From the NCBI RefSeq assembly GCF_016026235.1, contig NZ_CP065613.1: a DNA stretch of 64,000 nt; one strand, given 5' to 3'. The translations under genes were made by a program, and so were the position numbers. Shown here piece after piece: positions 11,898-61,647 of this stretch. Origin of the DNA: Escherichia coli (GTDB lineage Bacteria; Pseudomonadota; Gammaproteobacteria; Enterobacterales; Enterobacteriaceae). How positions within the stretch are numbered: position 1 is the first letter of the stretch; each line of letters opens with the position of its first letter. The notes below the pieces were generated by a model. It was not told the DNA's origin, searched no databases, and saw nothing but the letters and a program-made list of their open reading frames with translations.

Positions 11898-12893
11898 ATG
11901 GAGCTGCTCTGCCCTGCCGGAAATCTCCCGGCGCTTAAGGCGGCCATCGAAAACGGCGCAGATGCTGTTTATATCGGGCTAAAAGATGATACCAATGCCC
12001 GTCACTTCGCCGGCCTTAACTTTACCGAGAAAAAATTGCAGGAAGCGGTGAGTTTTGTCCATCAACATCGCCGCAAACTTCACATCGCGATTAACACTTT
12101 TGCGCATCCGGACGGTTACGCCCGTTGGCAGCGCGCCGTGGATATGGCGGCGCAGCTGGGTGCCGACGCGCTGATCCTCGCCGACCTCGCCATGCTGGAA
12201 TACGCCGCCGAGCGTTATCCGCATATTGAGCGCCACGTATCGGTGCAGGCTTCGGCGACCAATGAAGAGGCGATTAACTTTTATCATCGCCATTTTGACG
12301 TTGCCCGCGTGGTGCTGCCGCGCGTGTTGTCGATTCATCAGGTGAAACAGCTGGCACGGGTCACACCTGTACCACTGGAAGTGTTTGCTTTCGGCAGCCT
12401 GTGCATTATGTCGGAAGGCCGTTGCTATCTGTCGTCGTATCTGACGGGTGAGTCGCCTAACACCGTGGGCGCGTGTTCTCCGGCCCGTTTCGTGCGCTGG
12501 CAACAAACGCCGCAGGGGCTGGAATCCCGCCTGAACGAAGTGCTGATCGACCGTTATCAGGACGGCGAAAACGCAGGTTATCCGACGCTGTGTAAAGGGC
12601 GTTATCTGGTGGACGGCGAGCGCTATCACGCGCTGGAAGAACCAACCAGTCTCAATACCCTGGAACTGCTGCCGGAGTTAATGGCGGCGAATATTGCTTC
12701 GGTGAAAATTGAAGGCCGCCAGCGTAGCCCGGCGTATGTCAGCCAGGTGGCGAAAGTCTGGCGTCAGGCTATCGACCGTTGTAAGGCCGATCCGCAAAAC
12801 TTCATACCGCAAAGCGCGTGGATGGAGACGCTCGGGTCGATGTCCGAAGGCACGCAGACCACCCTTGGCGCGTATCACCGTAAATGGCAGTGA
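11898..12893 (+). CDS. ubiU: Peptidase U32 family protein UbiU (anaerobic ubiquinone hydroxylation)
   Basis: 331 aa from ATG 11898; U32 family with a conserved Cys cluster (CIMSEGRC...C...C). Confidence 0.85.
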   Translation: MELLCPAGNLPALKAAIENGADAVYIGLKDDTNARHFAGLNFTEKKLQEAVSFVHQHRRKLHIAINTFAHPDGYARWQRAVDMAAQLGADALILADLAMLEYAAERYPHIERHVSVQASATNEEAINFYHRHFDVARVVLPRVLSIHQVKQLARVTPVPLEVFAFGSLCIMSEGRCYLSSYLTGESPNTVGACSPARFVRWQQTPQGLESRLNEVLIDRYQDGENAGYPTLCKGRYLVDGERYHALEEPTSLNTLELLPELMAANIASVKIEGRQRSPAYVSQVAKVWRQAIDRCKADPQNFIPQSAWMETLGSMSEGTQTTLGAYHRKWQ

Positions 12894-12901
12894 GAAGAGC
12901 A

Positions 12902-13780
12902 ATGAAATATTCCTTAGGGCCAGTGCTGTGGTACTGGCCAAAAGAGACGCTGGAAGATTTTTATCAGCAGGCCGCCACCAGCAGCGCCGACGTGATTTAT
13001 CTTGGTGAAGCGGTATGCAGCAAGCGCCGGGCAACCAAAGTTGGCGACTGGCTGGAGATGGCAAAATCGCTCGCAGGAAGTGGCAAGCAGATTGTGCTCT
13101 CCACGCTGGCGCTGGTGCAGGCATCCTCTGAACTGGGCGAACTGAAACGCTATGTTGAGAACGGTGAGTTTCTGATTGAAGCCAGCGATCTCGGCGTGGT
13201 GAATATGTGCGCTGAACGCAAACTGCCGTTCGTCGCCGGGCACGCGCTGAACTGCTACAACGCGGTGACGCTGAAAATATTGCTCAAACAGAGCATGATG
13301 CGCTGGTGTATGCCGGTGGAGCTTTCCCGCGACTGGCTGGTGAATCTGCTTAATCAGTGCGATGAGCTGGGCATTCGCAACCAGTTTGAAGTGGAAGTCC
13401 TGAGCTACGGTCATCTACCGCTGGCCTACTCCGCTCGCTGCTTTACCGCGCGTTCGGAAGACCGCCCGAAAGATGAGTGTGAAACCTGCTGCATTAAGTA
13501 TCCGAACGGGCGCAACGTGCTGTCGCAGGAAAACCAACAAGTGTTTGTACTCAATGGCATTCAGACCATGAGCGGCTACGTTTACAACCTCGGTAACGAG
13601 CTGACATCCATGCAGGGATTGGTTGATGTGGTCCGCCTGTCACCGCAGGGTACTGACACTTTCGCGATGCTCGACGCCTTCCGCGCTAATGAAAATGGCG
13701 CTGCGCCACTATTGTTGACGGCAAACAGCGACTGTAACGGCTACTGGCGGCGGCTGGCAGGACTGGAGCTGCAAGCCTAA
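12902..13780 (+). CDS. ubiV: Peptidase U32 family protein UbiV (partner of UbiU)
   Basis: 292 aa from ATG 12902, starting 9 nt after the ubiU stop; Cys-rich C-terminal motif (CETCC). Confidence 0.85.
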   Translation: MKYSLGPVLWYWPKETLEDFYQQAATSSADVIYLGEAVCSKRRATKVGDWLEMAKSLAGSGKQIVLSTLALVQASSELGELKRYVENGEFLIEASDLGVVNMCAERKLPFVAGHALNCYNAVTLKILLKQSMMRWCMPVELSRDWLVNLLNQCDELGIRNQFEVEVLSYGHLPLAYSARCFTARSEDRPKDECETCCIKYPNGRNVLSQENQQVFVLNGIQTMSGYVYNLGNELTSMQGLVDVVRLSPQGTDTFAMLDAFRANENGAAPLLLTANSDCNGYWRRLAGLELQA

Positions 13781-13785
13781 GTAAA

Positions 13786-13905
13786 TATGCTCGTCATACT
13801 TCAAGTTGCATGTGCTGCATCTGCATTCGTTCACCCCAGTCACTTACTTATGTAAGCTCCTGGGGATTCACTCTCTTGTCGCCTTCCTGCAACTCGAATT
13901 ATTTA
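13786..13905. repeat. ERIC (IRU) element
   Basis: The core 13828-13871, read in reverse complement, is gtgaatccccaggagcttacataagtaagtgactggggtgaacg, which matches the ERIC core consensus with one mismatch. Outer boundaries are approximate. Confidence 0.6.
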
Positions 13906-13985
13906 GAGCACAGCTCACTTTGTTAACAACTTTAACTACTCTTTAATGCAGTATTAAAGATTAATCGGTAACAAAGTGAGCTGTT

Positions 13986-14993
13986 ATGACTGATAAAACC
14001 ATTGCGTTTTCGCTACTCGATCTGGCCCCCATTCCCGAAGGTTCTTCAGCGCGAGAAGCATTCTCCCACTCTCTCGATCTCGCCCGTCTGGCTGAAAAGC
14101 GCGGCTATCATCGCTACTGGCTGGCAGAACACCACAATATGACTGGCATTGCCAGTGCTGCCACGTCGGTATTGATTGGCTATCTGGCGGCGAATACCAC
14201 CACGCTGCATCTGGGGTCTGGCGGCGTGATGTTGCCTAACCACTCACCGTTGGTCATTGCCGAACAGTTCGGCACGCTCAATACACTCTATCCGGGGCGA
14301 ATCGATTTGGGGCTGGGTCGTGCGCCAGGTAGTGACCAACGGACAATGATGGCGCTGCGTCGCCATATGAGCGGCGATATTGATAATTTCCCCCGCGATG
14401 TCGCGGAGCTGGTGGACTGGTTTGACGCCCGCGATCCCAATCCGCATGTGCGCCCGGTACCAGGCTATGGCGAGAAAATCCCCGTGTGGTTGTTAGGCTC
14501 CAGCCTTTACAGCGCGCAACTGGCGGCGCAGCTTGGTCTGCCGTTCGCGTTTGCCTCACACTTCGCGCCGGATATGTTGTTCCAGGCGCTGCATCTTTAT
14601 CGCAGCAACTTCAAACCGTCGGCACGACTGGAAAAACCATACGCGATGGTGTGCATCAATATTATCGCCGCCGACAGCAACCGCGATGCTGAGTTTCTGT
14701 TTACCTCAATGCAGCAAGCCTTTGTGAAGTTGCGCCGTGGCGAAACCGGGCAACTGCCGCCACCGATTCAAAATATGGATCAGTTCTGGTCGCCGTCCGA
14801 ACAGTATGGTGTGCAGCAGGCGCTGAGTATGTCGTTGGTAGGTGATAAAGCGAAAGTGCGTCATGGCTTGCAGTCGATCCTGCGCGAAACCGACGCCGAT
14901 GAGATTATGGTCAACGGGCAGATTTTCGACCACCAGGCGCGGCTGCATTCGTTTGAGCTGGCGATGGATGTTAAGGAAGAGTTGTTGGGATAG
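13986..14993 (+). CDS. yhbW: Luciferase-like (FMN-dependent) monooxygenase family protein
   Basis: 335 aa in the position of K-12 yhbW; family assigned from memory of the K-12 annotation. Confidence 0.85.
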
Positions 14994-21706: not shown

Positions 21707-21906
21707 TGTAATATCCTTTCTCTTTCTTAGACAGTACCTTACGGCACTGGTGTTAATACCCGATCTTCTGCGCATCCTCGCGACTAATGACAACCCTAAC
21801 CCAGCTCTATGTGGGTAAAGCCTCTCATTAGCCGCGCGAACCTCTGCAACGGAAGATCATTCATAGCAACAATACATTAGTTTCCAGTGAATTGCTGCCG
21901 TCAGCT

Positions 21907-21936
21907 TGAAAAAAGGGGCCACTCAGGCCCCCTTTT
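21907..21936 (-). terminator. rpsO rho-independent terminator
   Basis: Hairpin aaggggcc/ggcccctt with a T-run on the minus strand, just downstream of rpsO. Confidence 0.6.
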
Positions 21937-21952: not shown

Positions 21953-22318
<366 letters not shown>

Positions 22319-23793: not shown

Positions 23794-23867
23794 GGCCTGA
23801 TAAGACGCGCCAGCGTCACATCAGGCAATCCATGCCGGATGCGGCGTAAACGCCTTATCCCGCATGG
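23794..23867. repeat. REP/BIME element
   Basis: ggcctgataagacgcgccagcgtcacatcaggc and gccggatgcggcgtaaacgccttatcccgcatg between infB and rbfA. Confidence 0.5.
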
Positions 23868-28545: not shown

Positions 28546-28751
28546 GCCCACCCCCAAGACATAAAAAAAGGGCCTAAAGCCCAGTTATTCTGTAGTCAGA
28601 TAACAAAAAACCCCGATAAATCGGGGCTTTATATAACTGAACCCTATAACCGCAACTGCGGTCTGGAGCACTTTCCAGAAGGATTTTTTCAAATCCCACT
28701 ACGAAGGTCGAAGTCTTCACAGTATATTTGAAAAAGGACTCTAAGGGAAAG

Positions 28752-28828
<77 letters not shown>

Positions 28829-31730: not shown

Positions 31731-31817
31731 TGGTACCGAGGACGGGACTTGAACCCGTAAGCCCTATTGGGCACTACCACCTCAAGGTAGCGTGTCTACC
31801 AATTCCACCACCTCGGC
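31731..31817 (-). tRNA. leuU: tRNA-Leu (anticodon GAG)
   Basis: The reverse complement reads GCCGAGGTGGTGGAATTGGTAGACACGCTACCTTGAGGTGGTAGTGCCCAATAGGGCTTACGGGTTCAAGTCCCGTCCTCGGTACCA, an 87-nt class II tRNA. Confidence 0.9.
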
Positions 31818-38374: not shown

Positions 38375-38621
38375 TTGTTATACCTCTTGAATATTCCTGA
38401 TGGGGCAAGTCTTCACCCACCCCGGCTGTTCGGCCTGCCCGGCATAACTCCTCACCGGGACCAGAAGCAAAAAAATACCGACCCAGGTACAAGTCCCAGG
38501 TCAGCTACAATTCACATTTTGATAGTCATTTTACCCTGAAGTTCCCGAAGGGTCATCGTTTACTTTATAGGGCGTTGCGCCGTAGTATGACGGCTCGATT
38601 CCAGGTTGTTAGCGCGAGATT

Positions 38622-61526: not shown

Positions 61527-61647
61527 CGTGCGGCCTGAAAAACAGTGCTGTGCCCTTGTAACTCATCATAATAATTTACGGCGCAGCCAAGATTTCCCTG
61601 GTGTTGGCGCAGTATTCGCGCACCCCGGTCTAGCCGGGGTCATTTTT
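61527..61647 (+). ncRNA. arcZ: Hfq-dependent small RNA ArcZ
   Basis: GTGCGGCCTGAAAAACAGTGCTGTGCCC...CACCCCGGTCTAGCCGGGGTCATTTTTT matches the ArcZ sequence as I remember it; its terminator overlaps the arcB stop on the opposite strand. Confidence 0.85.

Follow-up and report, generated by a model that had tools for sequence, protein, structure and literature searches.

The ubiV–yhbW intergenic region

The window, that is the whole 64,000-nucleotide stretch of Escherichia coli DNA analysed here, carries ubiV at 12884-13780 and yhbW at 13986-14993, both on the + strand. The two genes are co-directional, and the convergent arrangement given in the preliminary description of this DNA is consequently wrong. 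The RefSeq annotation of FDAARGOS_943, an identical E. coli genome, likewise places ubiU, ubiV and yhbW on one strand, and has mtr and deaD further downstream in the opposite orientation. The ubiV stop codon (TAA, 13778..13780, + strand, as read from the sequence, the open reading frames and the annotation) is separated from the yhbW ATG (13986) by 205 nt, and two features lie within this interval. The first, starting 5 nt after the stop codon, is a complete 127-bp ERIC (IRU/RU-1) element at 13786..13912, counted with its flanking TA and CA dinucleotides and placed on the minus strand in the conventional consensus orientation. The assignment is based on gapless consensus alignments, on the length difference between filled and empty alleles and on an alignment to the Rfam V_AS5 model; with identity, boundaries and insertion polymorphism taken jointly, it leaves little room for doubt. 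The second feature is a conserved dyad with 16-bp arms, distinct from ERIC, which runs on the + strand from the insertion point to 1 nt before the yhbW ATG (13910..13985).

Identity and boundaries of the ERIC element

The 44-nt ERIC core, GTGAATCCCCAGGAGCTTACATAAGTAAGTGACTGGGGTGAGCG, is found on the minus strand at 13828..13871 and matches the consensus at 43/44 positions, the sole change being GAGCG to GAACG. The near-consensus core with one mismatch noted earlier was thus recovered as described, and no core match with ≤3 mismatches occurred in 100 dinucleotide-preserving shuffles. Similarity is not restricted to the core. The 127-nt E. coli RU-1/ERIC consensus aligns to 13786-13912 without gaps at 107/127 identical positions (43/44 in the core and 64/83 elsewhere), and the Salmonella SeRU-1 reference copy likewise aligns gaplessly with 112/127 identities, 75/83 of the positions outside the core being the same. 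Both reference sequences were taken from Table 1a of Delihas 2007 (PMC2759123). Taken together, the window copy is 84-88% identical to the published references over the full length and 77-90% identical outside the core. The preliminary description had named a poor alignment outside the core as the result that would speak against an ERIC; since the whole element aligns gaplessly to both references, this was not what was found, and its identification of the element as an ERIC is upheld.

Read on the + strand, which is the sense strand for ubiV and yhbW, the element has the form TATGCTCGTCATAC...TTTAGAGCACA. Its right boundary, 13912, was set by the consensus alignment in combination with the 125-bp difference between filled and empty alleles. 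Consequently, of the extent proposed earlier (13786-13905), the left end stands and the right end falls 7 nt short of the true one. The reverse orientation ascribed to the element is correct relative to the conventional consensus strand, and in no other sense.

The element is present in several copies in E. coli, with a median of 6 megablast places per genome. Further copies were located between ybhI and ybhJ and upstream of rpiA; the ybhI-ybhJ copy of strain UTI89 is 96% identical to the window copy over its whole length. Two open reading frames that overlap the element, 13806-13946 on the + strand and 13709-13843 on the minus strand, were considered as genes and rejected; we take both to be known spurious reading frames of ERIC. 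The open frame of the element that starts at 13786 does not share the reading frame of ubiV.

Insertion site and target duplication

Comparison of filled and empty alleles defines the insertion site to the nucleotide. Empty alleles read GTAAA-TA-GCTCAC with a single TA, and filled alleles read GTAAA-TA-(123 bp)-CA-GCTCAC. The target is thus the TA located 5 nt 3' of the ubiV stop codon, which has been duplicated upon insertion. The left copy of the duplicated target lies at 13786..13787, and the right copy, at 13911..13912, has been mutated to CA in the window as well as in the other four filled E. coli alleles examined. Both E. albertii and a single E. coli strain, Z1323PEC0010, have an intact TA...TA arrangement. 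Terminal inverted repeats, TA termini and duplication of a TA target are established properties of ERIC (PMC2229807, PMC2759123), and the insertion is a non-autonomous miniature inverted-repeat transposable element of enterobacteria. The clean pair of filled and empty alleles, together with the intact TA...TA of E. albertii and of the one E. coli strain, supports a transposon-like origin of ERIC.

The Z1323PEC0010 element at ubiV-yhbW (locus L095, 110-366) shows 8 differences from the window copy inside the element and 0 in about 130 nt of flanking sequence. This pattern suggests either that an ERIC copy elsewhere served as donor in an ectopic gene conversion or that an older allele has been retained.

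Presence and absence across E. coli

Among 5426 complete E. coli genomes, 5416 contain the ubiV-yhbW locus and 1422 (26%) have a filled site. Throughout the unfilled genomes (74%) the region is exactly 125 bp shorter. Strains with an empty site include K-12 MG1655, BL21 derivatives, O157:H7, ST131, UTI89 and Nissle. The earlier expectation that ERIC presence would vary in this same intergenic region is thereby borne out, within E. coli (1422/5426 filled) as well as between species, E. albertii being filled and Citrobacter, Superficieibacter and more distant genera empty. Strain-to-strain variation of ERIC has been noted before, a passage in PMC10969869 that cites Wilson & Sharp 2006 giving 14 extra loci in non-K-12 strains. 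As K-12 has no copy at ubiV-yhbW, the locus is missing from K-12-based lists, and the present analysis adds one strain-variable ERIC locus outside such catalogues.

The four filled E. coli alleles compared with the window all carry an ERIC identical to the window copy, with flanks that differ by up to ~2.5%. The filled allele of strain 07B21 combines a K-12-like left flank (2 differences) with an ECC-1470-like right flank (3 differences). Likewise, the empty allele of 13E0725 and the filled allele of ECC-1470 differ at only 3 + 5 nt in ~1870 nt, and the 13E0725 junction is of the B2 type, GCGTAAGTATATAGCTC. Alignment of window positions 12900-14900 with loci L001, L002 and L085-L093 revealed mosaic flanks and breakpoints, apparently of recombination, within or close to the ERIC. 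The mosaic structure and the near-identical flanks of filled and empty alleles indicate that presence and absence have been moved among haplotypes by short-tract homologous recombination. In one of the filled genomes, E. coli UID2309220010 (L087), ubiV is annotated as a frameshifted pseudogene owing to a 1-nt length difference, which may be an assembly error.

The E. albertii copy and the age of the insertion

A genome scan with YhbW returned at least 12 enterobacterial loci among the matches listed, with ubiV upstream in 11; no E. fergusonii, E. marmotae, Shigella or Salmonella locus was among them. The E. albertii type strain carries an ERIC at the same TA, interrupted internally at two sites by insertions of 78 and 68 nt (L009, 1155-1425). 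No ERIC was detected in the other eleven loci among the matches listed, and direct reading of the ubiV-yhbW intergenic region in nine genera among these matches gave the same result. The ERIC-free regions read were those of Citrobacter (two species), Superficieibacter, two isolates labelled Enterobacter, Mangrovibacter, an isolate labelled Klebsiella, Erwinia, Brenneria and Acerihabitans.

Once the two insertions are removed, 6/127 positions (4.7%) distinguish the E. albertii copy from that of the window. The flanks of the two species differ to a similar degree, at 43/~881 and 59/~988 aligned positions (~5-6%). Furthermore, the two copies have in common the variants G4/C124, T45 and T89, which neither the other copies nor the consensus sequences show. 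Because these private variants are shared and the divergence of the copies is approximately that of their flanks, we take the E. coli and E. albertii copies to be orthologous, in which case the insertion would predate the split of the two species; E. albertii is represented by one genome. If the insertion is indeed ancestral, the empty state in E. coli would have arisen by precise loss that restored the single TA, and would then have spread. Such a loss, if true, would be direct evidence of clean ERIC removal.

The same distribution could be produced by independent insertions of ERIC into one TA hot-spot beside the dyad in E. coli and E. albertii, with the empty E. coli alleles being ancestral. 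YPAL repeats have been reported to target sites next to dyad symmetry (PMC2229807), and the genera outside Escherichia among the matches listed are empty, as would be expected in that case. However, separate insertions account neither for the variants private to the two copies nor for a divergence between them that equals that of the flanks. Independent insertion is less parsimonious than ancestral insertion followed by loss, and we regard it as improbable. Recent introgression of the element from E. albertii was rejected, as the immediate flanks of the filled alleles are E. coli-like and the copies differ by 6 positions and two insertions. The long E. albertii form was found at ubiV-yhbW in 0/5426 E. 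coli genomes.

The 78-nt insert also occurs elsewhere. A sequence 98.7% identical to it is present in 649 E. coli genomes, at 1-3 places in each. The ERIC upstream of rpiA in E. coli E2348/69 (L094, 351-637) has the 78-nt insert at the same internal ERIC position as in E. albertii, together with a second, different insert on the other side. From these sequences the 78-nt insert resembles a small element with a specific target site within ERIC.

Palindromic structure and folding

A consensus fold computed from five copies and the consensus sequences contains 36 pairs, with columns 1-27 pairing with columns 101-127. These columns correspond to the left terminal inverted repeat at 13786..13812, for which the single-sequence folds agree, and to the right terminal inverted repeat at 13886..13912; the two repeats form the arms of the hairpin. 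A central GC-rich core hairpin, CCCCAG...CTGGGG at 13834..13865, appears in single-sequence and consensus folds alike. Three of the pairs in the consensus fold (4/124, 6/122 and 27/101) are kept via changes on both sides. Covariation of this kind is expected of a hairpin, whether of RNA or of DNA, and equally of two termini recognised by one transposase, and it does not discriminate between them. Folding of the + strand ERIC RNA gave -36.8 kcal/mol (z -3.7) and that of the minus-strand RNA -52.8 kcal/mol (z -6.6), the weaker hairpin being that of the + strand.

ERIC is not represented by a family in Rfam. The window element matches RF02818 (V_AS5, Vibrio RNA AS5), the full model (1-129) aligning to 13791-13913 on the minus strand with 38.8 bits and E = 5.2e-06. 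This score lies below the gathering threshold of 96, and the element is therefore not a member of the family as curated. V. cholerae carries ERIC copies (PMC2267715), and because of this the match reflects common ERIC ancestry, not an sRNA gene; the V_AS5 family itself appears to be an ERIC-derived transcript. The alternative, that the window element gives rise to a minus-strand antisense or small RNA like AS5 from a hybrid ERIC/flank promoter, would fit the full-length V_AS5 match and the much better fold of the minus strand. It would also have a candidate promoter in the site TTAACA-17-AATAAT at 13926->13898 (minus strand), which matches at 10/12 positions, straddles the boundary between ERIC and flank and is directed back towards the ERIC and the 3' end of ubiV. 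However, 1 such promoter-like site was found where 0.6 are expected by chance, and 38.8 bits is far below 96. Production of such an RNA is accordingly rated as very improbable, and common ERIC ancestry is retained as the explanation of the match.

Elsewhere in the window, Rfam matches above the gathering score occur at 21765-21936, 22166-22280, 23794-23864, 28563-28663, 28755-28828, 31734-31817, 38470-38591 and 61528-61635. The families concerned are SraG, the S15 leader, naRNA4 (a REP-derived nucleoid-associated RNA), the rimP leader, two tRNAs, the greA leader and ArcZ, a set that is expected E. coli content.

The conserved dyad upstream of yhbW

The dyad next to the insertion point, recognised by cross-genus comparison and in the context fold, is formed by ACAGCTCACTTTGTTA (13910-13925), which pairs with TAACAAAGTGAGCTGT (13970-13985), and an inner palindrome, CTTTAAT-N5-ATTAAAG, lies between these arms. 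Escherichia, Citrobacter and Superficieibacter have identical arms, and Mangrovibacter shows a compensatory change in them (GCTCGC/GCGAGC). The arms are also kept in two isolates labelled Enterobacter despite loop insertions of ~70 nt. The right arm overlaps the yhbW ribosome-binding region. In read-through RNA the dyad could act as a hairpin in translational control or as one for RNase III; alternatively, it could be a pair of activator sites.

The loop insertions in the latter isolates (Enterobacter sp. BIGb0383 and Ag1 by label; L005 and L010, ~1390-1470) amount to 65-75 extra nt. The extra stretch folds into a strong hairpin, CTTTTCTGGCCGG...CCAGGCTGGAAGAAG, shows no likeness to ERIC in blastn and may be another small inserted repeat. 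Rfam matches of the yhbW dyad to mir-1285 were dismissed as chance similarity of a long hairpin, and no other Rfam family matches the dyad.

RamA targets yhbW directly in Klebsiella, and the gene belongs to the mar/sox/rob regulon (PMC4310594, PMC6561319) and has its own putative promoter. Scanning for a marbox gave a best match with 3 mismatches, in the left arm of the dyad (ACAGCTCACTTTGTTAACAA), the arms having 3-4 mismatches overall; this likeness is suggestive only. The insertion point lies exactly at the 5' edge of the dyad, and the DNA upstream of it has been moved by 125 bp. The insertion might thus be thought to alter yhbW regulation, either by shifting activation by MarA/SoxS/Rob or by insulating the gene from ubiUV read-through, and the regulon membership and the marbox-like arm would be in keeping with such an effect. 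Nevertheless, filled alleles retain the stretch from the dyad through the ATG without change, the dyad being intact in filled and empty alleles alike, and the likeness to a marbox is weak, no greater than chance would produce in AT-rich DNA. Altered regulation of yhbW therefore appears distinctly unlikely. Because the dyad-to-ATG stretch is the same in the filled alleles, little effect of the ERIC on yhbW is to be expected.

Probable transcription of the element and possible effects on ubiUV

No sigma-70 promoter or intrinsic terminator was found on the + strand in or beside the ERIC (13786-13912). Because both neighbouring genes lie on the + strand and no terminator-like site was detected on that strand between ubiV and yhbW, ubiUV transcripts probably run into the ERIC, which would be co-transcribed as ubiUV 3'UTR or read-through RNA. 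In such an RNA the element would form a long imperfect hairpin beside the yhbW-leader hairpin; in the context fold the two (~13789-13909 and 13910-13985) indeed stand side by side. The right arm of the element, which is the 3' arm in + strand RNA, contains the AU-rich stretch AAUUAUUUA (13897-13905, + strand). By analogy with the Yersinia model (PMC2229807, PMC10969869) this stretch is a candidate RNase E site. The ability of ERIC RNA to alter the stability of flanking mRNAs, mentioned in the preliminary description, derives from studies of Yersinia (reviewed in PMC2229807 and PMC10969869) and would plausibly extend to the window copy.

Stop-proximal ERICs that follow a co-directional gene were examined in three places, after ubiV, after ybhI and after a LysR fragment upstream of rpiA, and had the same orientation in 3/3 cases. 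In Yersinia, ERICs beside stop codons reportedly share the 'B' orientation and exert an effect that needs translating ribosomes (De Gregorio et al. 2005). Because the window copy begins 5 nt after the stop codon, contains AAUUAUUUA in its 3' arm and is oriented as the two other stop-proximal copies are, it plausibly belongs to this stop-proximal 'B' class, a putative assignment made from reviews, the reported properties of that class and the position of the AU-rich stretch. If the element is effective, ribosomes terminating at ubiV would hold the left arm unpaired. The AU-rich stretch of the right arm would then be open to RNase E, and ubiUV mRNA would be modestly lower.

On this basis the ERIC might be a working cis-regulatory RNA that destabilises ubiUV mRNA via ribosome-dependent unmasking of an RNase E site, so that strains with and without it would differ in expression of the anaerobic ubiquinone pathway. 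The position of the element 5 nt 3' of the ubiV stop codon, the AU-rich stretch in the + strand 3' arm and the common orientation of all three stop-proximal copies are in line with such a role. A precedent exists in Yersinia, where ERICs co-transcribed with an upstream gene lower its transcript in an orientation-dependent manner, with an RNase E site exposed in the terminal repeat, as reviewed in PMC2229807, PMC3184786 and PMC10969869. Conversely, 74% of strains are without the element and have no known phenotype, and E. coli ERICs are not known to destabilise upstream mRNA. A role of this kind is accordingly put forward as a tentative proposal that we consider doubtful. Somewhat the better supposition is that the window ERIC is a near-neutral passenger, a transposon relic, and its effect on the neighbouring messages would be modest at most.

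A broader conjecture, in our judgement unlikely, is that the polymorphism constitutes a natural cis-regulatory variant in 26% of E. coli. It would lower the mRNA of ubiUV (O2-independent ubiquinone synthesis) via translation-dependent RNase E cleavage and, as it adjoins the conserved dyad with its putative marbox, maybe shift the stress induction of yhbW, and it has as its evolutionary counterpart the origin of the empty alleles by precise loss of an ancestral ERIC. Apart from any such role, the filled and empty alleles provide natural, isogenic-like material for asking whether stop-proximal ERICs affect the stability of upstream mRNA in E. coli.

Comparison with known systems

Among the systems to which the element can be compared, the 'B-oriented' ERICs of Yersinia enterocolitica (De Gregorio et al. 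2005, J Bacteriol 187:7945) resemble it in lying a few nt after a stop codon, in their probable co-transcription with the upstream gene and in having an AU-rich stretch in the 3' arm. The species differs, however, and the 'B' orientation of the window copy is putative. The Vibrio RNA V_AS5 aligns over its full length and has the same hairpin architecture, but the distance between the 38.8 bits obtained and the gathering threshold of 96 sets the two apart.

Long ERIC variants with internal insertions have reportedly been described by Sharp in 1997 (Mol Microbiol 24:1314) and by Wilson and Sharp in 2006. The orthologous E. albertii copy, with its 78- and 68-nt internal insertions, is of this kind, whereas the window copy is the short 127-bp form.

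The closest likeness is to the enterobacterial repetitive intergenic consensus itself, ERIC or IRU/RU-1, known from the work of Sharples & Lloyd 1990, Hulton et al. 1991 and Wilson & Sharp 2006, and the basis of ERIC-PCR typing. The following features by which an ERIC is recognised were found in the window copy: the 127-bp length, the core (43/44), similarity over the full length (84-88%), a long imperfect palindrome, TA termini with duplication of the TA target, an intergenic location, several copies per genome and a presence that varies among strains. The differences are nothing essential, consisting of a compensated G-C pair at 4/124 and the T to C change in the right target duplicate. In combination, these comparisons identify the window element as an ordinary member of the ERIC family that was described in 1990-91 and has since been analysed genome-wide.
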